Positions 5,011 through 56,453 of a stretch of 64,000 bases of DNA are shown here, in pieces. Where the stretch lies: contig JAJRPJ010000018.1 in NCBI GenBank assembly GCA_024280835.1, positions 69,537 to 133,536 of the forward strand. Reading direction: 5' to 3'. Made by a program: the position numbers and the translations under genes. The DNA comes from Candidatus Zixiibacteriota bacterium (GTDB lineage: Bacteria; Zixibacteria; MSB-5A5; GN15; JACZUZ01). The notes beneath the pieces were generated by a model. The model saw nothing but the letters and a program-made list of their open reading frames with translations, was not told the origin of the DNA and did no database searches. Within the stretch, counting starts at the first letter, position 1. Each line of letters starts with the position of its first letter.

Positions 5011-5018
5011 CTTGCAAA

Positions 5019-5038
5019 TTGTTACCCTAAGGTAACAA
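5019..5038 (+). promoter_or_regulatory. Perfect 8-4-8 palindrome, candidate metalloregulator operator
   Basis: TTGTTACC-ctaa-GGTAACAA lies immediately downstream of the -10 element, placed to block transcription of the Mn/Fe transporter gene. Confidence 0.4.
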
Positions 5039-27110: not shown

Positions 27111-27153
27111 AAGAAAAAGCGTCGATCTCGTTATGAATCAACGAGATCGACGC
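27111..27153 (-). terminator. Rho-independent terminator closing the 28-kb operon
   Basis: On the minus strand: GCGTCGATCTCGTT-GATTCAT-AACGAGATCGACGC (perfect 14-bp stem) followed by TTTTTCTT, 75 nt after the stop at 27228. Confidence 0.85.
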
Positions 27154-27227
27154 TTTGTGAAGACTTTATAAGGGCTCTTTAGGTGACATCAGCCCCTCCT
27201 ACAATTGATCGGCTATTGCCTTCTAGA

Positions 27228-33647: not shown

Positions 33648-34729
33648 AAACTTCCTGTAAATGAACCGTTAGTATTAAATGTAGCTGAAGGGTTTATCGA
33701 TCCTGTTGTCCCGCATTCGGGCCATGAACCACCTGTAAATATCCATGAGACTAAATATGTCACATCGGCAATATTAACTTTGTTGTCGCCATTGGCATCG
33801 GCTTGATCACGACACTCAGGCGCAGAGCCGCCAGTGAAAATAAACGAAATTAGAAAAGTAATATCTGCAATATTGCTTTTTCCGTCCTTGTTTGCGTCTC
33901 CTGCAGTTTGACAGCATCCCGAACTCCCAAAAACAGAAATCTCGGAACGACTCGAATAAACGCCAGCCGCATTTTCTCCAATAATCAGATAATCAAATTC
34001 TGTGGAACCGTCGACTGCGGTATCAATATAGACACTATCAGCGATGCCCTGATCCGATAATGCGCCTGACGGGTTATCGATCCGGAAAAATGAACCAGCC
34101 GCTGTTTGGGCTCGTCTGTAAATGTGATATGTCAATGACGAGTCATAATCCCAGCGTAGATTTACTTGGCTGACGCTTACATTGGTGACGGTTAGTCCAG
34201 TTGGTTGTGACGGCCATAACACTGGAGTAAGTGTAATATTTTCTTGCTGAAAAGAATTATTCGGAATCATACCGCTGAGCTGCACACCTTCATTGCTTGT
34301 GGCGTGCAAAAAGTAATAAGCATATAGAGCCCCTGGTGATTCAGCGAGATAGTTTTGGAAATCATCGAACCAATTACCATTGTCATATCCTGCGCCGATT
34401 GAAATATCGGTACGAATTTCAGCGTCGGAGCCATTGATGAATCCGAAGAAAGAAACAGAGCCATTTACTGGAATAGATAAATCAGCTTTTTCTACATTGC
34501 CGAAAATAGATCCCTGAGCCAAAGCCCAAGACGGCACAACAGAAACAAGTAGCAAAGCGCAAATGCAATATTTTGCGCATAAACTCGCGCAATATGCACA
34601 TTTATTACTTAAGAGATGGTTGCTCAATAACTGATTGCCTTCAAGCTGACCGTTTGAACCAAACACAGCAATAGCCCTTGCCTGAGCAAGGACTTGAATT
34701 TCACTTATCTGTTGGTTTCTCTGTCTCAT
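33644..34729 (-). CDS. Secreted head-domain + dockerin protein (paralog of the 2139-aa N-terminus without the repeat array)
   Basis: Signal peptide CALLLVSVVPSWALA, then GSIFGNVEKADLSIPVNG...NWFDDFQNYL...NNSFQQENI, colinear with the 2139-aa head. Dockerin CCQTAGDANKDGKSNIADITFLISFIFTGGSAPEC..DANGDNKVNIADVTYLVSWIFTGGSWPEC. The stop overlaps the next ATG (ATGA). The true start is uncertain because the N-terminal extension is odd. Confidence 0.8.
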   Translation of the reverse strand: MRQRNQQISEIQVLAQARAIAVFGSNGQLEGNQLLSNHLLSNKCAYCASLCAKYCICALLLVSVVPSWALAQGSIFGNVEKADLSIPVNGSVSFFGFINGSDAEIRTDISIGAGYDNGNWFDDFQNYLAESPGALYAYYFLHATSNEGVQLSGMIPNNSFQQENITLTPVLWPSQPTGLTVTNVSVSQVNLRWDYDSSLTYHIYRRAQTAAGSFFRIDNPSGALSDQGIADSVYIDTAVDGSTEFDYLIIGENAAGVYSSRSEISVFGSSGCCQTAGDANKDGKSNIADITFLISFIFTGGSAPECRDQADANGDNKVNIADVTYLVSWIFTGGSWPECGTTGSINPSATFNTNGSFTGSL

Positions 34730-34774: not shown

Positions 34775-37700
34775 TTAAGGGCTGGGGAAACTCCCATTAG
34801 CGGCGGCATTCGCCTGATATGGTTTTCCTGGCGTGACTGGGAAGTTAGTTCCGAATCCAGCTGAGAAACGCGACTGATAGCTCTGCGAGCCAGCCACGAA
34901 ATTATTCACTGTATTGAGCGTTCCAGGGACATTATTGATAATGTCCTGAGCTACAGAGAAGTCCACTTGACGCTCAAATGGTATCATCAGGAAGTTGAAA
35001 TCGTTGGTCGCCGTCGTAATTATCGGATAGCTAACCGCGCCAGGAGCAGGAATCGCCCCAGCTATACTAAAGACAGTATTCACCGATGCATTTACCTGAT
35101 ATATACCGCCAACGCTTACTGCAAAATTCACTCCAAAACCAGCGGCAAAGCGAGATTCAAAGCTTTGCGAGGCCGCCACAAAATTGTTCAAAGTCAGCAC
35201 ATTGCTTGAACCGATGGCCGAAATTAGCTGGTCGGCGGTGGTGATACCTGTATTGGCAAATGGTATGGCAATCAAATTGAAGTTCGTAGTCGAAGTCACT
35301 ACTATTTGATAGTCAAATTCGCCAACACGATTTGAGAGCGCCGAACGTCTACCAAAACCATCAACAGCTTCAATCACATAGAAGTACTGAACTAATGTGT
35401 CACCGATGACATTACCCCCGCCGATATTGTTGTCTGTAAAGGTAATCGTGGCTGTTCCTGTAAAGCCAATCGAATCCAAAGCAGTCGGAGTGAAATAGGC
35501 GCTTGTGCCACGATAGATTACATAATGATCTACAGTTGTCGCCAAACCGCCTGTATCGAGCGTGATTGGTGACCAATCTAGTTGCATAGCATCCAAAGCA
35601 ATCAACGCGCTCAAATCAGCAACAGCTAATGGCGGCGCGGCATTGCCAGCCTCAACAACTGTGATACTCACAACTTCGCTGTCAACAGCTAGCGAATCAT
35701 CTGTAGCAAAGAAGGTCACCGAATAGATTCCAGCTTGCGTGAAATCAGGAGTCCAAGTCAATGAGCCAGTCCCGTTGAGATTGTCGGTGAAGACTGCTCC
35801 GATTGGAAGCGCAGTGGTCGTTAGAATCGGTGTCGACTCTTGATCAGTTGCCGAAACGGGGAAGTTCAAAGTAACATTTTCACTAACAGACTGAGAACCA
35901 ATGAAGGCCAATATCGGTAATTGATTGCCCACTTCCACAACAGTGATAGTAACAGTCTCACCGCTTGCCGCCAGTGAATCATCGGTGGCGAAGAAGTTGA
36001 TATTGTAAATTCCTGCTTGCGTAAATGTTGGCGTCCAGTTGAATGTCCCTGTGCCATCACCATTGTCATTGAATGTGGCGCCAGATGGTAGCGCCGAAGT
36101 TGTCAGGGCTGGGATTGATTCTGCGTCACTGGCGCTGACTATGAAACTCAGCAATGTATTCTCTGGTATTGATTGCGCTCCAATAGCAACCAAGACAGGC
36201 GACTGATTGCCAGCTTCAATAACTGTGATTGTGACAATTTCACTATCAACAGCAGTCGAGGCGTCAGTGGCAAAGAAAGTGACATTATAGACACCAGACT
36301 GTAAGAATGTCGGTGTCCAAGAAAGAGCTCCTGTTCCATCGGCATTATCGACGAATGTTGCTCCAGTCGGCAGAGCCGAAGTAGACAATGTTGGGGTTGA
36401 TTCTGCGTCCGTTGCGCTAATGGCAACATTCAAAGCATTATTCTCAAGAATTGATTGAGCGCCTATCGTCACTAACACTGGTAGTTGGTTGCCAGATTCG
36501 GTAACCGTGATTACAACAACTTCACTGTCAACGGCCAGAACTGCATCAGTGGCAAAGAAAGTCACAGAATAAATACCCGCTTGAGTGAATGTCGGTGTCC
36601 AACTAAAGGCGGCTGTACCATCGGCGTTATCTACGAACGTTGCTCCCAATGGCAATGCGCTAGAAGTCAACACTGGGATTGTTTCGGCGTCGGTGGCGCT
36701 GAGAGCCAAATTCAAAGCGACATTTTCAGAAACCGTTTGTGCGCCAATAGCCGCCAAAACTGGTAATTGGTTGCCCACTTCTGTAACAGTGATTGTAACA
36801 ATCTCACTGTCTACAGCTAGGGAAACATCGGTAGCATAGAAGGTTACTGAATAAACTCCTGATTGAGTAAAGGTTGGAGTCCAGTTGAAAGCTCCTGTGC
36901 CGTCGCCATTGTCAATGAAGCTTGCGCCAGTTGGCAGGGCAGTAGTAGTCAGCGTTGGAATTGATTCAGCGTCAGTTGCCGAAAGAGCAAAACCAAGAGC
37001 GACATTCTCAGCAACTGTTTGCGCGCCAATTGCAGCGAGAACCGGCAATTGGTTACCAGCTTCGATAACAGTGATTGCAACTACTTCAGAATCTGTCAGA
37101 ACACCATCAGATGCGCCAAAGGTCACTGAATAGACACCAGCTTGCACGAATGTAGGATTCCAGCTGAATGCACCTGTGCCATCACCATTGTCAATGAAAC
37201 TTGCTCCAGCGGGAAGAGCGCTGGTTGTCAGAGGTGGAATTGTGCCGTCCGCATCAGTAACGCTGACCACAAAATTCAAGGCCGCGCCTTCAGTTACGGA
37301 TTTCGCACCGATAAGCGCTATGACTGGCGCTTGGTTGCCAGCTTCACTGACACTAATAGTAACTATTTCACTGTCTGAGACGATTCCATCCGAGGCAAAG
37401 AATGTTACAACATAAGTTCCACTCTGCGTGAAATTCGGAGTCCAATCAAGGCCACCAGTTCCATCACCGTTGTCGGTGAAAGTTGCTCCTAGAGGAACAT
37501 TGGTAGCCGACAAAGTCGGGATTGTCGCATCAGCATCAGTGGCAGAAATCCCAAAGTTCAGATTCGCGCCCTCACTAACACCCTTAGGACCGATAGCCGC
37601 CAGAACAGGAGCTTGGTTGCCAGCCGAGTTGACAGTGATAGAAACTACTTCGCTGTCGATTAGTAATCCATCTGAGACAAAGAACGTAACTGAGTAAACT

Positions 37701-40700
37701 CCAGCTTGAACGAAACTTGGAGACCAATCAAATGTTCCAGAGCCAGTTCCGTTGTCAACAAAAGTTGCTCCAGTTGGTAGAGTCGATGTTGTCAGTGTTG
37801 GAATTGTCGCATCAGGGTCAACGGCGGTTATCGCAAAATTCAAGTTCGCGCCCTCATTGACACTCTGGGCGCCAATAGCGCTCAAGACTGGAATCTGATT
37901 TCCCGCTTCATTGACAGTGATAGAAACTGTTTCACTGTCGATCGCCACACCATCAGAAGCTGTGAAGATTACAAAATAGACTCCGTTCTGAGTGAAGTTT
38001 GGTATCCAAGCAAAGTTAGCGGTTCCGTTGCCATTGTCGGTTAGAATTGCACCGAGCGGCAAACCAGTGGCTCCAAAGAACGGTATTGTACCGTCAGCGT
38101 CTAACGCTGAGAGGCCAAAGGCTAAACTTATGTTTTCAGTTGTTGTGCGTGGACCGATTGTCGCCAGCACAGGAATCTGGTTGCCAGATTCGCTAATTGA
38201 GACAGTCACGATTTCACTATCAAGCGCCACGCCATCACTTGCAAAGAAGGTGATTGAATAAACGCCCGACTGAGTGAAATTCGGAGTCCAATTGAAAGTA
38301 CCAGTTCCATCTGCATTGTCGACAAAAGCCGCGCCAATCGGCAATGTGCCAACACTAAGCGCTGGGATTGTCGCATCTGGATCTGTTGCTGAGACTCCAA
38401 ATGTTAGATTCAGTCCCTCTGTCGATGACTGTGAGCCAATCGCCGCCAAAACAGGAGCCTGATTACCAGATTCAGCAACAGTGATTTGAACTACTTCGGA
38501 ATCAACTAAGACACCATCAGATGCGAAGAATGTCACTGAGTAGATACCCGCTTGTGTGAAGTCAGGTGTCCAAGCAAATGACGCTGTGCCATTATTATTG
38601 TCAGTGTATACAGCGCCAATTGGCAAGGCCGAGCTGGTTAGCGCTGGGAATGTGCCATCTGGGTCACTGGAGTTGACTGTGAAACTCAAGAGAGCGTTTT
38701 CTGCAATCGCCTGTGCGCCAATCGCCGCCAAGACTGGTGATTGATTACCTGATTCCAAGACAGTGATGTTGACAATCTCTACATCATCCAGTATGCCATC
38801 GGAGGCAACGAAGGTCACACTATAGACACCAGCTTGAGTAAAATCAGGAGTCCAACTAAACGTTCCTGTGCCGTCACCATTGTCAATGAATGTAGCTCCT
38901 GATGGTAATGAATTGGCTGTCAAAGCCGGAATCGTTGCATCAGGATCACTAGTAGAAATTATGAAACTAAGCAAATTGTTTTCAGTTATTGAACGTGGTC
39001 CAATACTTGCCAGAACTGGAGCCTGATTGCCAGCGTCACCAACTGAGATTGAAACGATTTCACTATCATTAACAATTCCGTCTGAGGCGCGGAAGACAAT
39101 ACTATATAGTCCCGCCTGTGTGAAATCTGGCGCCCAACTGAACGAACCTGTTCCGTCAAGATTATCTGTAAAGGTCGCCCCTAGAGGTAGCGCCGAAGTT
39201 GTCAATGCTGGAATTGTGCCATCGGCATCTGTGGCGCTAGCGCCAAAGCTTAGCAAAATACCTTCGGTAGTTGTCTGAGCGCCAATTGCCGCCAAGACTG
39301 GCGCTTGATTACCAGCGCTATTAACTGTGATTGTCACTTGTTCGCTGTCTATCACTAGACCATCAGATGCAAAGAAAGTTACGACATAGATTCCAGCTTG
39401 CGTAAAGTCTGGTGTCCAATCAAAAGCGCCTGTGCCGTTGGTGTTATCTGTGAATGTCGCACCACTCGGCAAAGCCGAGGTTGTCAGCGCTGGAATTGAA
39501 CCATCAGGATCCGAGGCAGAAACCGCAACTGCCAGCGCCACACCCTCATTGGTTGTCCGTGGGCCAATTGCCGCCAGAGTCGGCGCTTGGTTACCAGCTT
39601 CAAGAACTGTGATTGTGACCACTTCGCTATCGATTGCTACACCGTCAGAGGCCCGGAAGGTCACACTAAATCCACCTGCTTGAGTAAAGTCAGGAGTCCA
39701 GTTGAATGCACCTGTGCCATCGCCATTGTCCACAAAGGTGGCTCCAAGCGGTAAAGTTGTCGTATTCAATGATGGAATAGTTCCGTCGGCATCAGCGGCA
39801 TTGATAGAGAATGCCAACGTAGCGCCTTCTGTGACGTTTTGTGAGCCGATTAGCGTCAACACTGGCGCTTGATTGCCAGCGTCGTTAATTGTGATAGTCA
39901 CAACTTCACTGTCAATAGCCACGCCATCAGAAGCGGTGAAGACTACTATATAGCTACCCGCTTGTGTAAAGTCTGGCGTCCAATCGAAGGTGGCTGTACC
40001 GTTTAGATTATCTGTCAAACTTGCGCCAGTAGGTAACCCAACTGCAGCTAGCGCAGGAATTGTCGCATCGGCATCTGTTGCGCTAAGCGCAAAGTTAAGA
40101 TTGACACCCTCATTACTATTTTGTGGGCCAATGAGAGCCAAAATAGGAACTTGATTCCCTGCAGAGTTGATAGTGATAGAAACTACTTCACTATCGACAA
40201 CTACGCCGTCATTGGCGGCAAAAGTAACCAGATAGATTCCAGCTTGCGTAAAGTCTGGAGTCCAGCTAAATGTACCTGTTCCGTCAAGATTATCTGTGAA
40301 TGTGGCTCCGCTCGGTAGTGGTAAGCCACTAAGTGTCGGAATTGTGCCATCGAGATCGGAGCTAGAAATTCCAAAGCTCAACGTGACGCCCTCATTGGCG
40401 CTTTGCGAACCTATCGCTGCCAGAACTGGCGGCTGGTTACCTGCCTCATTGACAGTCACAGAAACTACTTCACTGTCAATCGCGACTCCATCCGAGGCAA
40501 ACACTGTCATTGAATAACTGCCACTTTGCGTGAATGTCGGCGTCCAATTCAATGAAGCTGTGCCATTAAGATTGTCTGTGAAACTCGCTCCTGCCGGAAC
40601 CCCAGTGGCAGTCAACGCAGGGATTGTTCCATCAGGGTCAGTGGCGCTCGCTCCGAAAGTCAGATTAGCGCCTTCAACTATGCTTTGCGGTCCGATAAGA

Positions 40701-43700
40701 GCCAAAACTGGATTCTGATTGCCAGCGTCGAAGACAGTGACAGTGACGATTTCGCTATCAACTGCCAAAGAATCATCGGTAGCAAAGAACGTGATATTGA
40801 ATGTTCCCGCTTGAGTGAAATCAGGAGTCCAAGACAGCGATCCTGTTCCGTCAAGATTATCTGTAAAAGTCGCCCCAAGTGGTAGGCCGATAGTTGTCAG
40901 AGTTGGCGCGATTCCGTCGGTGTCACTGGCTGAAACTGCGATTGCTAAGGCTAATCCTTCGGTAATACTTTGCGCGCCGATGCCTGCAAGAATCGGCAGT
41001 TGGTTACCCGCTTCAGTGACTGTAATAGTTACTATTTCACTGTCGATCAATGCTCCATCAGAAGCAAAGAAAGTGACCGCAAAAGAACCACTCTGAACGA
41101 ATGTCGGCGACCAACTGAAACTTCCTGTTCCGTCAAGATTGTCTGTAAAACTTGCTCCAAGCGGCAATAGTGAAGTCGAAAGAGCTGGTATTGTCAGGTC
41201 GACATCAGACGCCGAAACTGCAAAGCCAAGCGCTACGCCTTCGGTGACACTTTGCGCGCCAATCGTCGCAAGAATTGGGGCTTGGTTACCGAGTTCGTTG
41301 ACAGTGATGAGAACTATTTCGCTATCAAGTGTGACACCATCAGAAGCAAAAACTGTGACTGAGTAACTTCCACTCTGCGTAAAGTCTGGCGTCCAATTGA
41401 AGGCGCCCGTTCCGTCACCATTGTCTGTAAACGTTGCTCCAGTCGGAATCGGAGCTATACTCAATGCTGGGATTGTGCTATCTGGATCCAAGGCCGAAAC
41501 TGCGAAAGACAACAAGATTCCCTCATTGGTTCCCTGTGGGCCAACTGCGGCCAGAACAGGAATCTGATTGCCTGCGTCAATGACTGTAATTGAAACAATC
41601 TCACTATCAGTCACTAGACCGTCAGTCGCTCTAATAGTGACTGAATAGACTCCCGCCTGCGTAAAGAGCGGAGTCCAAGTCAAACTAGCTGTGCCGTCAA
41701 GATTATCTACGAACGCAGCGCCAAGCGGCAAACCAACTGCGCTCAAACCAGGGATTGTCGCGTCGGCGTCGATGGCAGTGATACTAACAGATAGTAAGGC
41801 GCCTTCTGTGATTGACTGAGCGCCAATGGCGGCCAGAACTGGAGGCTGGTTACCGGCTTCATTGACAACAACCGAAACAATTTCGCTGTCAGATATTAGG
41901 CCGTCACCAGCGAAGAAAGTAATCGAATATGCTCCGCTCTGGGTGAAGTCTGGAGTCCAGTCGAATGTTGCTGTTCCGTCGCCATTATCAATTAGAGTTG
42001 CGCCAAGTGGCAAAGCCGAAGATGTGAAGCTCGGAGTTGTGCCATCTGGGTCTGAAGCGGAAAGACCAAAGTTCAGCAGAGCGCCTTCATTGGTTGACCG
42101 AGCGCCAATCGCGGCTAGGACAGGTGTTTGATTACCTGATTCGAGTACGGTAATCGCAACAATCTGACTATCTTTGAGAATACCATCAGAAGCAAAGAAA
42201 GTTACAGTATAACTGCCACTTTGTGTGAAATCAGGCGACCAAGACAAAGTTCCTGTTCCATTACCATTGTCAACAAAACTTGCTCCACCTGGTAGTACGG
42301 TCGAAGTCAAAACTGGTGTTGTGCCATCAGGGTCAGATGCATTGATTCCGAAAGCCAGCGAAGCTCCTTCAGTGACTGATTGTGCGCCAATAGCCACCAT
42401 AATCGGAGATTGGTTGCCGGCTTCATTAATACTGATAGTGACAACTTCACTATCAACCAAAGCGCCATCAGAAGCGAAGAAAGTTATTGCATACGTTCCG
42501 CTTTGTGTGAAGTCCGGTGTCCAGTCGAATACACCTGTGCCATTTGCATTATCTATATAGGATGCTCCGATCGGTAAACCAGAGGCAGTTAGTGTCGGTG
42601 TTGTTGCATCTGGATCTGAAGCCGCAGTTGCGAAATTGAGATTGACACCTTCAAGAGTTGCCTTTGAGCCGATTGAAACCAGAATCGGCGCTTGGTTGCC
42701 AGACTCGTTGACACTGACAGTAACAATTTCACTGTCGGAACTAAGTCCGTCAGTAGCTATAAAGGTTACAAAGTAAGTACCACTTTGAACAAATGTCGGC
42801 GACCAATCAAAGACACCTGTTCCGTCGAGATTGTCGATGAATGTTGCGCCAGTCGGCAAAGAAGTGACACTCAATGTCGGAATCGTTACATCTGGATCTG
42901 ACGCGGATATTCCAAAGTTAAGATTGGCGCCTTCAAGAACACCTCGCGCGCCGATTGTCGCTAGAACTGGCGGTTGGTTGCCGGCTTCAAGAACCGTGAT
43001 GACAACTGTTTCACTATCGGTGATGACACCATCAGAGGCGCGGAAAACAATATTGTAAGTACCACCTTGAGCAAAATCTGGATTCCAGCTAAATGAACCA
43101 GTTCCATTGCCATTATCGGCAAAGATTGCGCCACTCGGCAACGCTGATGTTGTCAGCACTGGAGTTGTTCCGTCTGGATCAGTTGCGCCAACTCCGAAAG
43201 CCAAACTAAGTCCTTCGGTCGTTGACTGAGCGCCAATCGCCGACAGAACAGGCGCTTGGTTACCAACTTCAATTACTGTAATCGAAACAATTTCGCTATC
43301 CAAGAGAATTCCATCGGAGGCCTTAAAGGTAACCGAGTAGACACCCGCTTGAGTGAAGCCCGGAGTCCAAGACAAGGTTCCAGTTCCATCAAAATTGTCT
43401 GCGAAGGTTGCCCCTATTGGTAATGAGGTGACGCTCAAGCCCGGAATGGTCGCATCAGGATCTGAGGCAGTCACTACCAACGAAAGCAGAACCCCTTCTG
43501 TCGTAAATTGCGAACCAATGGTCGCCAACAATGGCGACTGATTGCCAACTTCATTGACTGTGATAGTGACAATTTCGCTATCGGAGAGGAGTCCGTCATT
43601 AGCGAAGAAAGTTATGTTGTAGATTCCGTTTTGCGTGAAGCTCGGTGTCCAATCAAAGGCTGCCGTGCCATCGCCGTTGTCTATATATATAGCGCCTGTC

Positions 43701-46700
43701 GGAAGAGGCCCTGTTGTTAGAGTTGGAGTGGTGGCGTCAGGGTCTGTAGCGCTAGTGACAAAAGATAGCGCAATTCCTTCATTAACATTTTGCGAACCGA
43801 TAACCGCCAAAACCGGTGACTGGTTACCAGACTCTGTCACAGTGATGATAATAATTTCACTATCAACTATGGCTCCATCACTTGCACGGAAAGTCACATT
43901 GTAACTTCCACCTTGAACAAAAGTCGGGGTCCAATCGAACGATCCTGTACCGTTGCCATTATCAACAAAGGTAGCGCCAGCCGGCAAACCAACAATACTC
44001 AAAGCTGGATTGATGTTATCAGGATCTGTCGCCGAAATCGCGACACTCAACAGGACGCCCTCAGAAACACTTTGTGAACCAATAGTCGCCAACACTGGTG
44101 GTTGATTACCCGCCTCGTTAATTGTAATCGAGACTATTTCACTGTCATTCAATAATCCATCAGAGGAGAAGAAAGTCACACTGTAAGTGCCACTCTGAGT
44201 AAAACTAGGAGTCCAATTAAATGCAGCAGTGCCGTCTCCGGTGTCTGTATAGACAGCGCCGATCGGTAGTGGAGTTGTGGTCATAGCAGGGAAGGTTCCA
44301 TCAGCGTCACTTGAGGTGACAACAAAGCTCATCGTCGCGCCTTCAAGAGCGCTCTTGGCGCCGATTGCCAATTGCACTGGCCGCTGATTACCTGCTTCAA
44401 GTACAGTAATCGAAACAGTCTCGCTATCCGAAACTGTTCCATCGGAGGCCACAAAAATAATCAAGAATGTACCAGACTGTGTGAAGTCTGGTGTCCAATC
44501 AAATACACCTGTTCCATCACTGTTGTCTGTATAACTGGCTCCAGTTGGTAAAGACAATGCGCTCAACAGCGGAATTGTTCCGTCAGGATCAGTCGCTGAG
44601 CTGGAGAAGTTTAGATTTACACCTTCGGTGGTTGACCGTGAACCAATCGTCGCCAATAGTGGAATTTGATTTCCAGCCTCTGTGACTGTTATCAATACAA
44701 CCTCACTATCATTCAAAACTCCATCGGAAGCAAAGAATGTCACACTATAAACGCCAGCTTGAACAAAACTTGGTGTCCAAGAGAACGACGCGGTTCCGTC
44801 AAGATTGTCTACAAATGTAGCGCCAGCTGGAAGCGAAGTAGCGCTAAGATTCGGCGTGGTCAAGTCTGGATCATTACCAGTGACGGTGAAGGCCAACACA
44901 ACATTTTCTGTTACGCTCTGCGCTCCGATTGCCGCCAAAACTGGAGCCTGGTTGCCAGCGCTATTTATTGTAATCGCCACAATTTCGCTATCATTGGCGA
45001 ATCCATCAGAGGCAAAGAAGGTGACATTGTATGTGCCACTCTGTGCGAAAGTTGGTGTCCAGTTAAATGTTCCAGTTCCATTGGCGTTGTCTGTGAAAGT
45101 TGCGCCAGCCGGCAATGAAGAAGCAGTTAACGCCGGGAAACCACCATCAGGGTCACTGGCTGAAGTTGCAAATGTTAGCAGAGCGCCCTCAGATCCGCTT
45201 TGCGGCCCGATAGCAGCTAGTACTGGAGCTTGATTTCCAGATTCAGTAACAGTGATGGTAACAACCTCAGAGTCAACTGCCAGAGAATCATCAGTTGAGA
45301 AGAAGGTGACACTGTATATGCCCGTTTGAACAAAGCTTGGCGTCCAGTCAAAGACTCCTGTGCCATTGCCATTGTCGACAAAAGTTGCGCCAGACGGCAA
45401 AGCAGTTGTAGTCAAAGCCGGCAAGCCGCCCTCGGGATCAGTTGCTGTGACAGGCACATTTAGATTTATTCCTTCGGCAACAGTCTGCGCGCCAATACTC
45501 GCTAGAATTGGCAACTGATTACCGGCTTCGATGACTGTGATTGCGACAACTTCACTGTCTGTAGCAATGCCGTCAGTTGCGCTAAAAGTCAGATTGACAA
45601 CACCACTTTGGGTCAAATCTGGGGTCCATGAGAATGTTCCAGTTCCGTCAAGATTGTCGACAAACGAAGCGCCAGTCGGTAAAGGCAAAGCGCTGAATGT
45701 CGGAATTGTCGCATCTAGGTCTGAAGCGGCAATACTGAAACTCAAGAGAGTTCCTTCAAGAATTGATTGTGCCCCAATCGCGGCCAAAACAGGCGTTTGA
45801 TTTCCCGCATCAGTGACTGTAATAGTGACGACCTCGGAATCAACAGCCAGCGAGTCATCAGTAGCAAAGAACGTGACAGTATAATTGCCACTCTGCGTAA
45901 AGTCTGGTATCCAACTAAATGTTCCTGTACCATTGGCATTATCGAGATACGATGCGCCAGCAGGAATTCCTGTAGCGCTCATAGTGGGTGAGGCGCCTTC
46001 AATATCTGTCGCGGAAGTTCCGAACGTCAGATTAATATTTTCTGTGACAATCTGCGCTCCAATACTTGCCAGGACAGGAAGCTGATTCCCCGCATCTACG
46101 ATTGTGACTGTTACAATTTCACTATCAGTTGCAAACCCATCAGCGGCAAAGAATGTAATATTAAACACACCGCTTTGAACGAAACCAGGTGTCCAGTCCA
46201 ATGTACCAGTTCCATCGAGGTTGTCTGTGAAGGCCGCTCCAGAAGGCAATGTCGAAACACTTAGCGCTGGAGTTGTCTGGTCGAGATCACTGGCTGACAC
46301 ATTCACCAACAATTGCAACCCTTCGGCGCCGGCTTGTGCCCCAATCACCGCCAAGACCGGTAATTGATTCCCAGCGTCATTAACAGTAATAGTGACTATT
46401 TCGCTATCTGATAGCGCACCATCATTGGCGAAGAAGGTCACATTGTATGCTCCCGCTTGAACAAAACTCGGAGTCCAGCTGAGTGTCCCTGTTCCATCAG
46501 TGTTATCAGTAAAGCTCGCTCCAAGCGGCAAACCAGTGACGCTAAGCGCTGGTATTGTTAGGTCAGGATCAGCGGCATTGATGCTCACAGACAGTAGAGC
46601 GCCCTCTATTACAGATTGGGCTCCAATTGCTGATAGAATCGGCGCCTGATTTCCGGCTTCATTAACTGTAATAGAAACAGTCTCACTATCGGCGGTCAAA

Positions 46701-49700
46701 GAATCATCTGTGGCGATGAATATCACCAAGTAACTTCCACTTTGTGTGAATGTCGGTGTCCAATCGAATGTGGCAGTGCCGTTGCCATTGTCGATAAAAG
46801 CAGCTCCCGTCGGCGCGTTTGAAACGCTGAGCGCTGGAACGGGACCGTCTAAATTCGTAGCCGTTAGCGGCAAATTCAAATTGATACCCTCAGTAACACT
46901 TTGCGGTCCAATAATCGCCAAAACTGGTAGCTGATTTCCCGCATCGACAACTGTGATTGAAACTATTTCGCTGTCGTTCAATAAACCATCGGAAGTAAAG
47001 AAGGTCACATTGTATACACCAGACTGAATGAAGTTCGGTGTCCAATTCAGTGAACCAGTACCGTTAAGATTGTCTGTATAAGTAGCGCCAGTTGGCAATC
47101 CAGTGGCGCTAAGCGTCGGAATCGTCGCATCAGGGTCTATTGCAGAAGTTGCGAATGACAGCGCTGCACCTTCAGTCACACTCTGTGAACCAATTGCAGT
47201 CAAGACAGGGGCTTGATTACCTGCTTCGGTAATTGTGATGGTGACGACTTCGCTATCGATGACTGTGCCGTCGCTTGCAGAGAAAGTAACTATATAGGCG
47301 CCTGCTTGTACGAATGTCGGTGACCAATCAAATGTTCCACTACCATCGGCATTGTCGATAAAGGTTGCTCCCGCAGGTAAAGGGGAGGCACTGACACTTG
47401 GAATTGTACCGTCTGGGTCGGTAGAGTTTATATTGAAATTCAGATTCAAACCCTCGGCCACTCCTTGTGCGCCAATAGCGCTCAAAACTGGCGACTGATT
47501 GCCAGCTTCAAGAACAGTGATTTCGACGATTTCTGAATCGGCCAGCACACCATCGGTGGATATGAACGTCACATTGAAAATTCCCGCCTGATTGAAAGCT
47601 GGCGTCCATGAGAATGATCCCGTGCCGTTCGTGTTATCTGTATAGCTGGCGCCAACTGGAAGGTTTGTTGCATTCAGTGTTGGGATTGTTCCATCTGGGT
47701 CGCTGGCTGATGTCGCAAAAGCCAAGACCGCTCCTTCAGATACAGACTTGATACCAATTGCAGCCTGAACTGGCGCCTGATTCCCTGATTCAAAAACATT
47801 GATACTTACGATTTCAGAATCCGTAGCCAGACCATCACCAGCAAAGAAAGTCACACTATAAGAGCCAGCTTGAGTAAAATCTGGTGTCCAACTGAATGAA
47901 CCAGTCCCATCAGCATTATCAATATATGTAGCGCCGCTTGGTAGCGCAGAGGTCGTCATAACTGCGATCGTAGAATCCGAATCGGTGGCCGCTGTCGCAA
48001 AGGAGAGGTTCACACCTTCTGTAACTGACTGACCGCCAATAAGCGACAGCGCTGGAGTATGATTGCCAAACTCAGTAACTGTAATAGAGACAATCTCTGA
48101 ATCTAATCCACCGGAACCATCTGCTGCAAAGAACGTGACTGAAAAAGCGCCAGACTGGTTGAATAGTGGCGTCCATGAGAAACTACCCGTTCCATCACCA
48201 TTATCAGTGAAACTTGCTACGCTCGGCAATGCGTTAGTTGTCAACACTGGTATTGGTCCATCTGCATCTGCCGCAGAAACGATAAATGCCAGATTGCTTC
48301 CCTCGACAATCGCTTGCGGGCCAATGGCCGTCAGAATTGGCGCTTGATTAACATTGGTAACGGTTATAGCAACTATCTCAGAATCAGTAGCGGCGCCATC
48401 AGTTGCAAAGAAAGTCACATTATAAAGGCCAGCTTGAGTAAAGTCTGGTGTCCAACTGAATGATCCTGTGCCATTCAAATTATCCGTGTAACTAGAACCA
48501 AGTGGCAATCCTGTTGCGCTCAATGTCGGTGTGGTGCCATCGGCATCACTTGCAGTTGTTCCAAATGATAGAAGCACATTCTCATTGACGGCTTGTGCGC
48601 CGATAGCCGCTTGTACTGGAGCTTGATTAACATTGGTAACGGTTATAGCAACTATCTCAGAATCAGTAGCGGCGCCATCAGTTGCAAAGAACGTCACATT
48701 ATAAAGTCCAGCTTGAGTGAAGTCTGGCGTCCAGCTGAATGAACCCGTGCCATTCAGATTATCTGTGTAACTAGAACCAAGTGGCAATCCTGTTGCGCTT
48801 AGTGTCGGTGTGGTGCCATCGGCATCACTAGCGGTTGTTCCAAAGGATAGAAGTACATTCTCATTAACTGCTTGTGCGCCAATCAAAGCCAATACCGGAG
48901 CTTGATTAACATTCGTAACTGTAATAGCAACAATCTCAGAATCGGTAGCGGCGCCATCACTAGCGAAGAAGGTCACATTGAAGATTCCAGCTTGAGTAAA
49001 GTCTGGCGTCCAGCTGAATGAACCAGTGCCATTCAGATTATCTGTATAACTAGAACCAAGTGGTAATCCTGTTGCGCTCAATGTCGGTGTGGTGCCATCG
49101 GCATCACTGGCGGTTGTTCCGAATGCTAGAAGTACATTCTCATTGACTGCCTGTGGGCCGATAGCCGCTTGTACTGGAGCTTGATTCACATTGGTAACTG
49201 TAATAGCTACCACTTCAGAATCAGTAGCGGCGCCATCAGTTGCAAAGAAAGTCACATTGAACACACCAGCTTGAGTAAAGTCTGGTGTCCAACTGAATGA
49301 TCCTGTGCCATTCAAATTATCCGTGTAACTAGAACCAAGTGGTAATCCTGTTGCGCTCAATGTCGGTGTGGTGCCATCGGCATCACTGGCTGTTGTGCCA
49401 AAGGATAATAGTACGTTTTCATTGACTGCCTGTGGGCCGATAGCCGCTTGTACTGGAGCTTGATTCACATTGGTAACTGTAATAGCTACCACTTCAGAAT
49501 CAGTAGCGGCGCCATCAGTTGCAAAGAAAGTCACATTGAAGATTCCAGCTTGAGTGAAGTCTGGTGTCCAGCTGAATGATCCTGTGCCATTCAGATTATC
49601 TGTATAACTAGAACCAAGTGGCAATCCTGTTGCGCTTAGAGTCGGTGTTGTGCCATCGGCATCACTAGCTGTTGTGACAAAGGATAATAGTACGTTTTCA

Positions 49701-50377
49701 TTGACTGCCTGTGGGCCGATAGCCGCTTGTACTGGAGCTTGATTCACATTGGTAACTGTAATAGCTACCACTTCAGAATCTGTAGCGGCGCCATCAGTTG
49801 CAAAGAAGGTCACATTGAACACACCAGCTTGAGTAAAGTCTGGTGTCCAACTGAATGATCCTGTGCCATTCAGATTATCTGTGTAACTAGAACCAAGCGG
49901 CAATCCTGTCGCGCTTAGAGTCGGTGTGGTTCCATCGGCATCACTAGCTGTTGTGCCAAAGGATAATAGTACGTTTTCGTTGACTGCTTGCGAACCAATC
50001 AAAGCCAAAATTGGAGCCTGATTGACATTGGTAACTGTAATAGCAACCACTTCACTATCGACAGCCAGCGAATCGTCAGTCGCGAAGAAAGTCACACTAT
50101 AAACACCTGATTGCAAGAACGTCGGTGTCCAAGACAACGAACCAGTGCCGTTAAGATTATCTGTAAAGACCGCCCCAGTCGGCAGGGCGGAAGTTGTCAG
50201 CGCTGGAATTGATTCGATATCACTAGCAGAGATTACAACCGAGAGCAGAACGTTCTCAGATGTAGCTTGTGCGCCAATCGGACTTAGCACGGGCAAATTG
50301 TTCGCCTGCGCTAAAGCCTTTGCCGAAATCAAACAAAACACCAGCCCTGTTAAAAGCGCTATTTTTTTGATAAACAT
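34775..50377 (-). CDS. Giant (5,200 aa) secreted protein: ~52 cadherin-like/He_PIG repeats + FN3-like domain + two unknown C-terminal modules. No dockerin and no T9SS CTD.
   Basis: One uninterrupted 15.6-kb ORF. Signal peptide MFIKKIALLTGLVFCLISAKALA. Repeat unit as in the 2139-aa protein. C-terminal tail (289 aa) LDWSPITLD...HYVIYRG...YFYVIEAVDGFGRRS (FN3-like) followed by duplicated modules. Confidence 0.9.
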   Translation of the reverse strand: MFIKKIALLTGLVFCLISAKALAQANNLPVLSPIGAQATSENVLLSVVISASDIESIPALTTSALPTGAVFTDNLNGTGSLSWTPTFLQSGVYSVTFFATDDSLAVDSEVVAITVTNVNQAPILALIGSQAVNENVLLSFGTTASDADGTTPTLSATGLPLGSSYTDNLNGTGSFSWTPDFTQAGVFNVTFFATDGAATDSEVVAITVTNVNQAPVQAAIGPQAVNENVLLSFVTTASDADGTTPTLSATGLPLGSSYTDNLNGTGSFSWTPDFTQAGIFNVTFFATDGAATDSEVVAITVTNVNQAPVQAAIGPQAVNENVLLSFGTTASDADGTTPTLSATGLPLGSSYTDNLNGTGSFSWTPDFTQAGVFNVTFFATDGAATDSEVVAITVTNVNQAPVQAAIGPQAVNENVLLAFGTTASDADGTTPTLSATGLPLGSSYTDNLNGTGSFSWTPDFTQAGIFNVTFFASDGAATDSEIVAITVTNVNQAPVLALIGAQAVNENVLLSFGTTASDADGTTPTLSATGLPLGSSYTDNLNGTGSFSWTPDFTQAGLYNVTFFATDGAATDSEIVAITVTNVNQAPVQAAIGAQAVNENVLLSFGTTASDADGTTPTLSATGLPLGSSYTDNLNGTGSFSWTPDFTQAGLYNVTFFATDGAATDSEIVAITVTNVNQAPILTAIGPQAIVEGSNLAFIVSAADADGPIPVLTTNALPSVASFTDNGDGTGSFSWTPLFNQSGAFSVTFFAADGSGGLDSEIVSITVTEFGNHTPALSLIGGQSVTEGVNLSFATAATDSDSTIAVMTTSALPSGATYIDNADGTGSFSWTPDFTQAGSYSVTFFAGDGLATDSEIVSINVFESGNQAPVQAAIGIKSVSEGAVLAFATSASDPDGTIPTLNATNLPVGASYTDNTNGTGSFSWTPAFNQAGIFNVTFISTDGVLADSEIVEITVLEAGNQSPVLSAIGAQGVAEGLNLNFNINSTDPDGTIPSVSASPLPAGATFIDNADGSGTFDWSPTFVQAGAYIVTFSASDGTVIDSEVVTITITEAGNQAPVLTAIGSQSVTEGAALSFATSAIDPDATIPTLSATGLPTGATYTDNLNGTGSLNWTPNFIQSGVYNVTFFTSDGLLNDSEIVSITVVDAGNQLPVLAIIGPQSVTEGINLNLPLTATNLDGPVPALSVSNAPTGAAFIDNGNGTATFDWTPTFTQSGSYLVIFIATDDSLTADSETVSITVNEAGNQAPILSAIGAQSVIEGALLSVSINAADPDLTIPALSVTGLPLGASFTDNTDGTGTLSWTPSFVQAGAYNVTFFANDGALSDSEIVTITVNDAGNQLPVLAVIGAQAGAEGLQLLVNVSASDLDQTTPALSVSTLPSGAAFTDNLDGTGTLDWTPGFVQSGVFNITFFAADGFATDSEIVTVTIVDAGNQLPVLASIGAQIVTENINLTFGTSATDIEGASPTMSATGIPAGASYLDNANGTGTFSWIPDFTQSGNYTVTFFATDDSLAVDSEVVTITVTDAGNQTPVLAAIGAQSILEGTLLSFSIAASDLDATIPTFSALPLPTGASFVDNLDGTGTFSWTPDLTQSGVVNLTFSATDGIATDSEVVAITVIEAGNQLPILASIGAQTVAEGINLNVPVTATDPEGGLPALTTTALPSGATFVDNGNGTGVFDWTPSFVQTGIYSVTFFSTDDSLAVDSEVVTITVTESGNQAPVLAAIGPQSGSEGALLTFATSASDPDGGFPALTASSLPAGATFTDNANGTGTFNWTPTFAQSGTYNVTFFASDGFANDSEIVAITINSAGNQAPVLAAIGAQSVTENVVLAFTVTGNDPDLTTPNLSATSLPAGATFVDNLDGTASFSWTPSFVQAGVYSVTFFASDGVLNDSEVVLITVTEAGNQIPLLATIGSRSTTEGVNLNFSSSATDPDGTIPLLSALSLPTGASYTDNSDGTGVFDWTPDFTQSGTFLIIFVASDGTVSDSETVSITVLEAGNQRPVQLAIGAKSALEGATMSFVVTSSDADGTFPAMTTTPLPIGAVYTDTGDGTAAFNWTPSFTQSGTYSVTFFSSDGLLNDSEIVSITINEAGNQPPVLATIGSQSVSEGVLLSVAISATDPDNINPALSIVGLPAGATFVDNGNGTGSFDWTPTFVQGGSYNVTFRASDGAIVDSEIIIITVTESGNQSPVLAVIGSQNVNEGIALSFVTSATDPDATTPTLTTGPLPTGAIYIDNGDGTAAFDWTPSFTQNGIYNITFFANDGLLSDSEIVTITVNEVGNQSPLLATIGSQFTTEGVLLSLVVTASDPDATIPGLSVTSLPIGATFADNFDGTGTLSWTPGFTQAGVYSVTFKASDGILLDSEIVSITVIEVGNQAPVLSAIGAQSTTEGLSLAFGVGATDPDGTTPVLTTSALPSGAIFADNGNGTGSFSWNPDFAQGGTYNIVFRASDGVITDSETVVITVLEAGNQPPVLATIGARGVLEGANLNFGISASDPDVTIPTLSVTSLPTGATFIDNLDGTGVFDWSPTFVQSGTYFVTFIATDGLSSDSEIVTVSVNESGNQAPILVSIGSKATLEGVNLNFATAASDPDATTPTLTASGLPIGASYIDNANGTGVFDWTPDFTQSGTYAITFFASDGALVDSEVVTISINEAGNQSPIMVAIGAQSVTEGASLAFGINASDPDGTTPVLTSTVLPGGASFVDNGNGTGTLSWSPDFTQSGSYTVTFFASDGILKDSQIVAITVLESGNQTPVLAAIGARSTNEGALLNFGLSASDPDGTTPSFTSSALPLGATLIDNGDGTATFDWTPDFTQSGAYSITFFAGDGLISDSEIVSVVVNEAGNQPPVLAAIGAQSITEGALLSVSITAIDADATIPGLSAVGLPLGAAFVDNLDGTASLTWTPLFTQAGVYSVTIRATDGLVTDSEIVSITVIDAGNQIPVLAAVGPQGTNEGILLSFAVSALDPDSTIPALSIAPIPTGATFTDNGDGTGAFNWTPDFTQSGSYSVTVFASDGVTLDSEIVLITVNELGNQAPILATIGAQSVTEGVALGFAVSASDVDLTIPALSTSLLPLGASFTDNLDGTGSFSWSPTFVQSGSFAVTFFASDGALIDSEIVTITVTEAGNQLPILAGIGAQSITEGLALAIAVSASDTDGIAPTLTTIGLPLGATFTDNLDGTGSLSWTPDFTQAGTFNITFFATDDSLAVDSEIVTVTVFDAGNQNPVLALIGPQSIVEGANLTFGASATDPDGTIPALTATGVPAGASFTDNLNGTASLNWTPTFTQSGSYSMTVFASDGVAIDSEVVSVTVNEAGNQPPVLAAIGSQSANEGVTLSFGISSSDLDGTIPTLSGLPLPSGATFTDNLDGTGTFSWTPDFTQAGIYLVTFAANDGVVVDSEVVSITINSAGNQVPILALIGPQNSNEGVNLNFALSATDADATIPALAAVGLPTGASLTDNLNGTATFDWTPDFTQAGSYIVVFTASDGVAIDSEVVTITINDAGNQAPVLTLIGSQNVTEGATLAFSINAADADGTIPSLNTTTLPLGATFVDNGDGTGAFNWTPDFTQAGGFSVTFRASDGVAIDSEVVTITVLEAGNQAPTLAAIGPRTTNEGVALAVAVSASDPDGSIPALTTSALPSGATFTDNTNGTGAFDWTPDFTQAGIYVVTFFASDGLVIDSEQVTITVNSAGNQAPVLAAIGAQTTTEGILLSFGASATDADGTIPALTTSALPLGATFTDNLDGTGSFSWAPDFTQAGLYSIVFRASDGIVNDSEIVSISVGDAGNQAPVLASIGPRSITENNLLSFIISTSDPDATIPALTANSLPSGATFIDNGDGTGTFSWTPDFTQAGVYSVTFVASDGILDDVEIVNITVLESGNQSPVLAAIGAQAIAENALLSFTVNSSDPDGTFPALTSSALPIGAVYTDNNNGTASFAWTPDFTQAGIYSVTFFASDGVLVDSEVVQITVAESGNQAPVLAAIGSQSSTEGLNLTFGVSATDPDATIPALSVGTLPIGAAFVDNADGTGTFNWTPNFTQSGVYSITFFASDGVALDSEIVTVSISESGNQIPVLATIGPRTTTENISLAFGLSALDADGTIPFFGATGLPLGAILTDNGNGTANFAWIPNFTQNGVYFVIFTASDGVAIDSETVSITVNEAGNQIPVLSAIGAQSVNEGANLNFAITAVDPDATIPTLTTSTLPTGATFVDNGTGSGTFDWSPSFVQAGVYSVTFFVSDGLLIDSEVVSITVNSAGNQAPVLAAIGPKGVSEGANLNFGISATDADATIPTLSATNVPLGATFTDNGDGTGGLDWTPNFTQSGTYVVTFFASDGIVSDSEIVTISVSEAGNQAPVIALIGAKSVTEGAALNFVVSVTDADGTIPPLTTSALPAGASFIDNGDGTGAFSWNPTFVQAGVYSVTFGASDGVLTDSEVVAITVIEAGNQLPVLAAIGAQTVAENVALGFALSATDAESIPTLTTTALPTGASFIDNGDGTGAFNWTPTFTQSGVYSVTFYATDVSLAVDSEIVTITVTEVGNQLPVLAAIGAQTVSENVALNLALSATDAETIPVLTSSALPLGATFVDNADGTAAFSWTPTFTQAGIYSVTFFATDAVLAVDSEVVVITVTESGNQLPVLVTIGAQSILENNALNVAISATDAESTPTLSTSALPTGATFVDNADGTGALSWTPTFLQSGVYNVTFFATDASTAVDSEIVTITVIEAGNQSPVLVAIGAQSIPENTLLSFIVSASDAESIPALTTSALPSGATFNDNGDGTGTFNWTPTFTQAGIYNINFFATDDSLAASGETVTITVVEVGNQLPILAFIGSQSVSENVTLNFPVSATDQESTPILTTTALPIGAVFTDNLNGTGSLTWTPDFTQAGIYSVTFFATDDSLAVDSEVVSITVVEAGNAAPPLAVADLSALIALDAMQLDWSPITLDTGGLATTVDHYVIYRGTSAYFTPTALDSIGFTGTATITFTDNNIGGGNVIGDTLVQYFYVIEAVDGFGRRSALSNRVGEFDYQIVVTSTTNFNLIAIPFANTGITTADQLISAIGSSNVLTLNNFVAASQSFESRFAAGFGVNFAVSVGGIYQVNASVNTVFSIAGAIPAPGAVSYPIITTATNDFNFLMIPFERQVDFSVAQDIINNVPGTLNTVNNFVAGSQSYQSRFSAGFGTNFPVTPGKPYQANAAANGSFPSP
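35645..50302 (-). repeat. Array of ~52 tandem 91-97-aa cadherin-like/He_PIG coding repeats (aa 26-4911)
   Basis: Periodicity was read from the protein. The count is estimated from length (4,886 aa at about 94 aa per unit). Confidence 0.85.
48356..50029 (-). repeat. Six near-identical 279-bp (93-aa) tandem copies at the 5' end of the giant gene (repeats 2-7)
   Basis: The unit NVNQAPVQAAIGPQAVNENVLLSFGTTASDADGTTPTLSATGLPLGSSYTDNLNGTGSFSWTPDFTQAG(V/I/L)(F/Y)NVTFFATDGAATDSE(V/I)VAITVT occurs six times. 49142-49260 is letter-identical to 49421-49539, and the first 81 nt recur at 49700. Confidence 0.95.
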
Positions 50378-55280: not shown

Positions 55281-56390
55281 TCCAGTCAGCTGTCCAGTTG
55301 GACGCAGATTGTTTGATTTGTTCGATAGGAGTTGTTCGATTCGAGTTTTCAGCGCAATCGCTCTTTTCTATTCTTTCGTTACTACTCTTGCTTTGTAAGC
55401 AGTAGCTGCGTAATCAATAACATTGTAATCACTTGGCGATAACTATCAGGGTCAGTGCAGCTTCGCCAGCTTCTATTCTCTTTGCTATAATCTCTATTTT
55501 GGACTCCTGCCAGAGAGAACCTTCGTACGACAAACGCTCTGGTTAGCAATAATCAAATCCAGAGCGACTTACGGCAAATCCTCCAATTCCGTTTGAGCAA
55601 TAAGCAGACCAATCTGCCATACTATCGAAGGTGGAAGAGTATCCTGTTCAATTGTCGCACAACCATTTCGGATCATGGGTAGGTTCAAAACCCGAAATAC
55701 GATTATAAACGGAAAATCCTTGTCCAATAATCGCTTAAGTCAGAAAAACGGCCTTTCCCACTGATAAACGATGGCCGATAATGGCCAAACAACAGGTTGA
55801 AGCTCGTTTCCTCGTTAGCTGAGTCCTTCTGACGACATTAGGTATACGTGAGGCGGTAAGGTATGAAACGCAAGTAATACAGATTATTACACTGTCATAC
55901 GCAAGACACGCAAACAATTGCGCGTTTAGCTAACGTCTATGCTGCATTGCTTTACTCCATTTGCAATCTTCGACGTTGCTTCGGCGCCTAAACTTCCAGT
56001 CTCGGTTACGATACACATCAATATCACCCTCAGGTGGTGGCCTATTCCCTACTTATTGTGACACTAGAACCAGGATTCCTGATAGGATCTTGCTGACGGA
56101 TGTGCGAGGGAAATCGTATCCAACTGACCTGCGAATAATATACTACTTATCCACATTTTCGTCAAAGGTTTTCGCGCCTCTTTCAGGACTAAATTGACTC
56201 ATTTATCCATTTGACACTGTAGGTCTTAACTATATTTCACCAACCTCTTTTTCACAGACAATGTCAGTCGACATTTGTCAATAAACCAGCAGGTTCGCTC
56301 TTAGCTATTTCTTAGCTATTAAGGAGTTAATCTTCAGATGGGGGAAAACGACGGTAAGGCAGTGATACTATGAATCATCGTGAGACGCTT

Positions 56391-56434
56391 AAAATAAAAG
56401 TCCCAACCGAGGGAGGAAATCCTCCCTCGGACGG
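56391..56434 (-). terminator. Rho-independent terminator after the 893-aa gene
   Basis: On the minus strand: TCCCGTCCGAGGGAGG-ATTT-CCTCCCTCGGTTGGGA (10-bp perfect core plus outer pairs) followed by CTTTTATTTT, 20 nt after the stop at 56454. Confidence 0.75.
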
Positions 56435-56453
56435 GAAATAAAGCAAGAAATGA

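Follow-up and report, generated by a model that had tools for sequence, protein, structure and literature searches.

Giant surface proteins built from immunoglobulin (Ig)-like repeats are common. Among them, the type I secretion system (T1SS) RTX adhesins SiiE, LapA and MpIBP are half-megadalton acidic rods of about 50 or more Ig-like repeats. Other proteins are held at the surface by docking. Scaffoldins such as C. thermocellum CipA carry an X-module-dockerin (XDoc) dyad at their C-terminus, CipA-type cohesin scaffoldins classically carry a carbohydrate-binding module (CBM) as well, and SLH-type modules anchor scaffoldins non-covalently to the envelope. A dockerin keeps a protein on the surface; it is not an export signal. 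In Cloacimonadota, a cohesin scaffoldin with a type IX secretion system (T9SS) C-terminal domain (CTD) has been proposed together with dockerin enzymes (PMC8542988). Here we describe a locus from a Candidatus Zixiibacteriota bacterium, contained in a window of 64,000 nucleotides of contig JAJRPJ010000018.1, where genes for cohesin, dockerin and T9SS-CTD proteins surround an open reading frame (ORF) for a 5,200-residue Ig-repeat protein, hereafter the giant. Its repeat array is ordinary. What is out of the ordinary is to find a cohesin/dockerin and T9SS-CTD locus in Zixibacteria, and the fact that the giant closes with a C-terminal unit which is uncatalogued and yet present in more than 1,000 protein clusters. 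We name this unit FN3*-DM, for an FN3-like domain that ends in NRVGEFD(Y/F) (FN3*) and is followed by a pair of homologous modules of about 85 residues (DM). It is repeatedly tied to cohesins, to T9SS cargo and to secreted enzymes, and from this architecture and context we infer that it binds: our best explanation, to which we would give an even chance, is of a portable module, a third such device beside dockerin and CTD, that docks or attaches a surface fibre non-covalently.

How does the giant compare with the described systems? Like the tandem-95 (He_PIG/Big_9) giant adhesins, it is acidic and secreted and repeats an Ig-like unit of about 94 residues dozens of times. Unlike these adhesins, which usually close with catalogued sorting signals, it closes with FN3*-DM. 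It resembles the T1SS RTX adhesins in size, in its 50 or more Ig-like repeats, in acidity and in having specialised domains at one end, but it has a Sec signal peptide and not a single GGxGxD motif, on which grounds we rejected it as a T1SS RTX adhesin, and T1SS genes were not seen in the window. The XDoc dyad offers another parallel, in that an Ig/FN3-like domain is packed on an internally duplicated C-terminal docking module, and in that FN3*-DM, too, is found on cohesin-bearing proteins and in cohesin/dockerin loci. DM nevertheless shows no homology to dockerins. It consists of two alpha/beta modules of about 85 residues, whereas the dockerin consists of two Ca2+-binding EF-hand-like helical segments of about 22 residues. 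The locus also recalls T9SS cargo and the Cloacimonadota system, with which it shares an FCB-group lineage, canonical CTDs on the neighbours and cohesin-CTD anchors beside dockerin cargo; the difference is that the giant has no CTD and that elsewhere DM precedes a CTD and does not replace it. Finally, the SLH-type modules of anchoring scaffoldins are alike in the proposed role, in being a repeated C-terminal module and in non-covalent envelope attachment, but have no sequence or fold similarity to DM. If FN3*-DM is indeed a docking or anchoring device, it would be a new entry in the short list of bacterial means of surface attachment and an annotation handle for many C-termini now called hypothetical, and it would make it more pressing to explain how proteins without a CTD get across the outer membrane of T9SS-bearing phyla.

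The tail of the giant spans residues 4911 to 5200 (290 amino acids, aa). Pfam and NCBIfam gave no match at E<=1 on the last 316 aa. An AlphaFold2 model of the tail, built with 33 homologues, is compact and confident (pLDDT 93.3, pTM 0.89) and predicts an FN3 domain followed by two alpha/beta modules, each roughly strand-helix-strand-strand-strand. With Foldseek, the FN3 part matches the FN3 domain of chitinase A1 (1K85, TM-score 0.77, root-mean-square deviation 2.8 A), as well as pectate lyase FN3 domains. HHalign recognises the two modules that follow as homologues (probability 99.9%, E 7e-31, 47% identity), and DM modelled alone is predicted with similar confidence (pLDDT 92.7). Foldseek found nothing like this DM model in the PDB (best E 0.31, TM-score <=0.24) and no match in BFVD, and the DM sequence profile returned nothing meaningful from PDB sequences. 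The giant itself scores 1.8e-50 against the FN3* profile and 3.5e-84 against the DM profile. The original prediction, made from the sequence, had an FN3-like domain plus two unknown modules at this end; model, Foldseek and HHalign agree with that architecture, and the tail does not appear to be a known sorting or anchor domain, as every library searched lacks it.

The same holds for the anchors that were sought individually. With a threshold of E<=1, neither Pfam nor NCBIfam recognised a T9SS CTD in the tail, be it type A (PF18962/TIGR04183) or type B (PF13585), and HHalign gave a probability of 0.1-0.2% between DM and the seven CTDs of the locus. Likewise, Pfam found no dockerin in the tail, and comparison with the dockerins of the locus by HHalign again gave 0.1-0.2%. 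There is no sortase or exosortase signal (LPXTG, PEP-CTERM and similar): the protein ends in ...AAANGSFPSP, the tail has no hydrophobic window and NCBIfam is blank. Two further candidates were rejected, an autotransporter or type V secretion substrate on finding no barrel or two-partner secretion domain (Pfam, first 1,000 aa and last 316 aa) and a tail model that is not a barrel, and a lipoprotein on finding no lipobox, the only Cys being at position 15 in ...GLVFC with Phe at -1. The repeats begin at residue 25, right behind the signal peptide, and the tail is therefore the only non-repeat module of the giant. Thus, it was correctly foreseen that the giant lacks both the dockerin and the CTD with which its neighbours end (dockerins in w2139, w361, w401 and w933; CTDs in w903, w700, w893 and w296). 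It was also said that export and retention of the giant are unexplained, which needs qualifying on two counts. The outer-membrane export puzzle is real, but the dockerin-ending neighbours likewise have no outer-membrane export signal, so that the puzzle belongs to the locus and not to the giant alone; and for retention, FN3*-DM is the obvious candidate.

FN3*-DM is by no means private to the giant. A DM-only profile searched against 1.84 billion cluster representatives matched 1,083 of them at E<=1e-3 and 523 at E<=1e-10. The modules first called unknown are, in fact, uncatalogued in the libraries searched, but they form a conserved, portable and widespread pair. DM is the extreme C-terminus in 83 of the 146 representatives with a complete DM, 46 of which end exactly in Trp-Pro; another 53 have about 190-240 residues beyond DM, with a canonical T9SS CTD among them in the members scanned, and the remaining 10 are of other types. 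Some 20 clusters are stand-alone proteins of about 215-255 aa, in which a signal or anchor at the N-terminus leads through an Ala/Pro-rich linker to DM. Could FN3*-DM then be a new class of C-terminal secretion or sorting signal, read by a translocon or sorting enzyme that moves CTD-less proteins across the outer membrane? The 83 C-terminal copies with their frequent Trp-Pro end would fit, as would the portability of DM across many cargo types and a giant that has a Sec signal and no recognised determinant of outer-membrane export. We nevertheless think this improbable. In the 53 representatives DM is a passenger upstream of further domains, with a canonical CTD among them in the members scanned, and in the stand-alone proteins, about 230 aa of signal or transmembrane (TM) segment and DM only, there is nothing to sort. 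DM also occurs in a Chloroflexota metagenome-assembled genome (MAG), an envelope type in which T9SS is not expected, it has no homology to CTDs, and the giant's dockerin-bearing neighbours get out of the cell with no DM of their own.

What DM is attached to varies widely: peptidases of families C1, S8, S9 and C25, glycoside hydrolases of families GH88 and GH2, fucosidase, RGL11 and Ig-repeat proteins. Closer to the giant, over 50 Zixibacteria-type proteins have a tail 50-85% identical to its own. Zixibacteria-type tails end in FPxP, and in these proteins all end in ...FPxP or 1-2 residues off. The bodies that bear this tail differ, those of P0061 and L008 being only about 31% identical to the repeats in the window, and six further proteins of 595-1,445 aa, scanned among the closest profile matches, carry it on bodies with Big_9/PKD (one small protein and two repeat proteins), TIG/PKD and F5/8-type-C domains or, in one case, on a Pfam-blank body. 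Such portability across differing bodies is a trait that dockerins and CTDs also show. In most Zixibacteria homologues (P0001-P0039, P0061), a K319L-like PKD domain (PF22352) separates FN3* from the last repeat; the giant has none at this place (aa about 4905-4915).

Cohesins are recurrent partners in these architectures. Among 62 complete members, 10 include a Pfam cohesin domain, and about 13 clusters have the plain order signal peptide-cohesin-FN3*-DM. One protein of this last kind is named Chloroflexota; its gene lies next to others for TM-anchored cohesin proteins and for a protein with a faint dockerin. The link to cohesins is thus seen in two phyla, in Chloroflexota cohesin/dockerin loci and in the Zixibacteria locus, which is syntenic with contig L012. 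Taxonomy is rare in the cluster records, and the phylum range of the family rests on the one Chloroflexota protein and on CTD-bearing, FCB-like members. A word-indexed search with a diverse DM alignment returned 14 proteins only, all of them stand-alone. Many members outside the Zixibacteria type have one Cys ahead of module 2 and a second one within the last strand (8 of 20 aligned sequences), a pair that would fit an extracellular disulphide; the tail of the giant and its close relatives do not have them. In class B members (P0086 aa 741-954, P0098 aa 896-1105), a conserved region of about 120 aa lies between DM and the T9SS CTD. It features the motif APH(L/V)V(W/Y)G...SPGC, is blank in Pfam and may be another uncatalogued domain.

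FN3* and DM can also be encoded apart. In two loci with a stand-alone DM of about 230-260 aa (L013 and L014), 2-4 adjacent genes end 2-5 residues past FN3*, precisely where DM begins when the two are fused (Table 1). These neighbours include CAP-domain proteins and Pfam-blank proteins; in L014, one neighbour, an alkaline phosphatase, matches FN3* only in part and continues for about 40 residues beyond it. Taken together, the split form and the confident, compact model of the fused form suggest, by the logic of domain fusion (Rosetta stone), that FN3* and DM touch. Moreover, a homologous CBM96-like protein directly follows the DM gene in 6 of 6 non-Zixibacteria loci examined, which are unrelated to one another. 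The CBM96-like proteins share a PTAVTL..F.A motif, and those of L001, L010, L013 and L014, four of the six, close with a hydrophobic stretch and an Arg/Lys cluster. This terminus resembles a sorting signal or membrane anchor and makes the protein a possible partner of DM. We tried w361 and the N-terminus of w2139 as the CBM96-like counterpart in the window and rejected this (HHalign 0.8%; HMM, no match in the window). Going one step further, FN3* and DM may constitute an undescribed non-covalent docking system like cohesin-dockerin, used fused or split in several phyla, by which, in T9SS-bearing diderms such as Zixibacteria, CTD-less giants would attach to CTD-anchored partners and possibly exit piggy-backed on them. 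We offer this only tentatively and consider it somewhat unlikely; if true, piggy-back docking would also explain the export of dockerin proteins. A different arrangement is seen on contig L016, where four tandem paralogues (189-273 aa) end in FN3*, each after an ORF of 86-106 aa, just downstream of a radical SAM/SPASM gene.

How would an attachment module work in the giant? We envision that the giant leaves the cytoplasm through the Sec pathway and would then reach the surface. There, FN3*-DM would tie the C-terminus of the fibre to a cell-surface partner, protein or glycan, making this the proximal end, and the repeat array with its recently expanded N-terminal units would project outward as an adhesive or spacer filament of about 0.2 um, as estimated from roughly 4 nm per Ig domain. 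Around it, cohesin proteins would be fixed to the outer membrane via their T9SS CTDs, and the other large Ig-repeat proteins would plug in via their dockerins. Several observations weigh against this proposal. No binding partner of FN3*-DM was identified, and the DM profile finds only one copy in the window. The TM-anchored CBM96-like protein has no homologue in the window or in the Zixibacteria loci L002-L009. The idea that FN3*-only proteins always lie near a DM was rejected, L016 having none in about 17 kb of flank. In the 53 of 146 representatives in which DM stands upstream of about 190-240 residues, with a genuine T9SS CTD among them in the members scanned, an extra anchor looks redundant. 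And DM accompanies glycoside hydrolases and peptidases, as carbohydrate-binding modules do.

These last two points lead to another explanation, in which DM is a carbohydrate- or substrate-binding module (CBM or lectin) and the giant an adhesin, either shed or part of a matrix, that holds on to an external polymer by its C-terminal tip. The producer would then not need to retain it, or would do so non-specifically via the acidic, possibly Ca2+-bridged array. The enzymes listed above would be natural companions of such a module, an internal position ahead of a CTD-bearing tail (CTD in the members scanned) is the usual one for an accessory binding module, a CBM96-like protein follows the DM gene in six loci, and a CBM is classically part of CipA-type scaffoldins. 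What speaks against it is that most copies are at the extreme C-terminus, many with a conserved Trp-Pro end, which is unusual for CBMs, and that DM is always preceded by the same specialised FN3*. Further points against it are the split form, with several neighbours ending in FN3* beside a stand-alone DM, and a Zixibacteria-type tail that is portable across unrelated non-enzymatic bodies, and DM has no sequence or Foldseek similarity to any CBM. We regard a binding module of this kind as the main alternative, possible but doubtful, to the docking and attachment module that we favour.

The remainder of the giant is more familiar. The ORF starts with ATG and has no internal stop, and its N-terminus, MFIKKIALLTGLVFCLISAKALA followed by QA, is a typical Sec signal peptide; hydropathy shows this to be the sole strongly hydrophobic segment, with four windows within the repeats that barely reach threshold. 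The product is extremely acidic, with a net charge of about -465 (Lys+Arg 0.6%, Asp+Glu 9.6%) and with Thr+Ser+Ala+Gly making up 45%. His is nearly absent (it rounds to 0.0%) and the mature protein has no Cys, the only one, at position 15, being inside the signal peptide. The 52 units follow head to tail at a spacing that is always 93, 94 or 95 residues, with pairwise identities that average 59% (protein) and 60% (DNA). Scored over the first 1,000 aa, the repeats reach 226.3 bits with NCBIfam NF012211 'tandem-95 repeat' (cutoff 90), 180.8 bits with Pfam He_PIG (PF05345, cutoff 24) and 166 bits with Big_9 (PF17963, cutoff 23.6); Cadherin_5 (107.5 bits) and Cadherin_4 (98.1 bits) match as well, yet more weakly than He_PIG and Big_9. 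In the PDB, the nearest solved relatives picked up by a profile built from 47 units are Ig-like domains at the C-terminus of endofucoidanase 6DMS (E 5e-6), along with filamin repeats, while a PDB sequence search with a single repeat pair gave no match. Judged by their sequence, these are ordinary bacterial Ig-like adhesin repeats. Six acidic or amide positions are invariant in the unit (D29, D49, N50, D77, D83, E85), which together with the extreme charge suggests that the repeats may bind Ca2+. Thus, the original prediction of an uninterrupted 5,200-aa ORF with a signal peptide and about 52 repeat units was accurate, register included; only its label 'cadherin-like' is better replaced by He_PIG/Big_9 'tandem-95', Cadherin_5 being matched secondarily.

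Could so repetitive an ORF be an artefact of assembly, either a chimera or the outcome of repeats being collapsed or expanded? At the DNA level, units 2-7 share 87-95% identity, with exact repeats of up to 122 nucleotides (nt), the longest in the array, and short-read assemblers could misjudge their number. They also form the only part that Tandem Repeats Finder (TRF) detects (48338-50054, period 279). The remaining 46 units, in contrast, share just about 60% DNA identity. An independent MAG contig (L003) is colinear with the giant, gap-free and 82% identical over its last 3,628 aa, up to the end of the L003 stretch. In several other assemblies, ORFs of 2,500-3,600 aa or more share both the tail and the genes downstream, and a complete homologue of 3,408 aa with the same tail lies on an 83-kb contig. 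A chimera, a concern raised at the outset, is ruled out by the colinear copy in L003 and the complete homologue, and an artefact of any kind is extremely improbable; the copy number of units 2-7 is the only part exposed to short-read assembly error and the only number in the array that is uncertain.

The giant belongs to a row of minus-strand genes in the order w401, w893, w700, w903, giant, w361, w2139, w239 + w933 and then w296 (Table 1). On its two sides the giant is separated from the next gene by 40 and 45 nt, and w361 shares 4 nt with w2139. Such spacing is consistent with co-transcription; a gap of 604 nt precedes w296. The CTDs of the locus are canonical type A (NYPNPFNP...KMxLLK). Gene for gene, the row is syntenic with the Zixibacteria-type contig L012, where w401 corresponds to L012_395, w893 to 864, w700 to 666, w903 to 817, the giant to P0061, w2139 to 1936 and w239 + w933 to 1220. 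The downstream part is also kept in L002-L008. Named homologues are mostly Zixibacteria, and some of the MAGs are labelled Ignavibacteriales or FCB group. We take this to be a conserved Zixibacteria surface-assembly locus which, to go by its domains, would combine three T9SS-CTD proteins, at least two of them with cohesin-like modules, with dockerin-ending Ig-repeat proteins and the giant. In the literature searched, no paper joins Zixibacteria with cohesin, dockerin or type IX secretion.

Table 1. Positions of the features discussed, in the coordinates of the 64,000-nucleotide window unless a contig (L number) is given.
Feature	Position	Strand	Description	Basis
Giant ORF	34775-50377	minus	5,200 aa, about 526 kDa	read from sequence
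Signal peptide	50306-50377	minus	Sec-type, aa 1-24 (...AKALA, then QA)	read from sequence, hydropathy
Repeat array	35648-50305	minus	52 He_PIG/Big_9 Ig-like 'tandem-95' repeats, aa 25-4910	HMM, unit alignment
Young sub-array	48353-50026	minus	units 2-7, aa 118-675, 93-aa units	87-95% DNA identity; TRF
FN3*	35297-35641	minus	FN3-like domain, aa about 4913-5027, ends in conserved strand SNRVGEFDYQ	model, profile
DM module 1	35039-35302	minus	aa 5026-5113, alpha/beta, about 85 aa	model, HHalign
DM module 2	34778-35038	minus	aa 5114-5200, homologous to module 1, ends ...GSFPSP	model, HHalign
w401	59722-60927	minus	dockerin at end (weak Pfam match); ortholog of dockerin protein L012_395	
w893	56454-59135	minus	Big_9, weak cohesin, T9SS CTD; ortholog L012_864	domain HMMs, L012 comparison
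w700	53178-55280	minus	Big_9, cohesin, T9SS CTD; ortholog L012_666	domain HMMs, L012 comparison
w903	50418-53129	minus	He_PIG, T9SS type-A CTD; ortholog L012_817	Pfam/NCBIfam, L012 comparison
w361	33644-34729	minus	partial copy of w2139 N-terminus, dockerin; 45 nt downstream of giant	
w2139	27228-33647	minus	TIG/Big_9/He_PIG repeats, terminal dockerin; ortholog L012_1936	
w239 + w933	22402-25901	minus	jointly one L012 gene of at least 1,220 aa; C-terminal dockerin	
w296	20907-21797	minus	small protein with T9SS CTD	domain HMMs
ORF-poor stretches	55281-56453; 25902-27227		1.2-1.3 kb each	
Split-form genes ending in FN3* (...NRVG.F.F.LTPG, then stop)	L013 7246-7812, 9859-11334; L014 6924-7697, 9867-11387, 11421-12554			
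CBM96-like genes	L001 11389-12129; L011 4213-5283; L010 8786-9541; L013 8761-9495; L014 8855-9550; L015 10726-11742			
FN3*-ending tandem paralogues	L016 9551-15264		four genes	

Residues 55-264 of w361 align to the N-terminus of w2139 and, with 49% identity, to that of its ortholog in L012, which makes w361 a partial duplicate of the gene that follows it. The true start of w361 is probably further downstream, as the ATG-defined ORF puts about 45 residues ahead of the signal peptide. As for w239 (25182-25901, 239 aa) and w933 (22402-25203, 933 aa), the former has a signal peptide and the latter a TTG start and none; they overlap by 22 nt and align to residues 1-133 and 232-1036 of the single L012 gene. 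Probably, a frameshift near 25,200 separates them, either a sequencing error or the mark of a pseudogene. At its C-terminus, w933 has a dockerin that BLAST aligns to that of w361 at 50% identity, although Pfam gave no match there.

Two stretches of the locus have no convincing ORF (the longest has 78 aa) and no Rfam match, as was the case for the whole window; they are probably promoter or regulatory spacers that split the locus into transcription units. The dockerins of w361 (aa 268-345), w933 (aa 853-933) and w401 (aa 325-401) have conserved Cys before, between and after both repeat segments (for example GCCQTAGD...APECRD...WPECG), which suggests that the locus uses disulphide-stabilised dockerins, unusual in comparison with the clostridial type.

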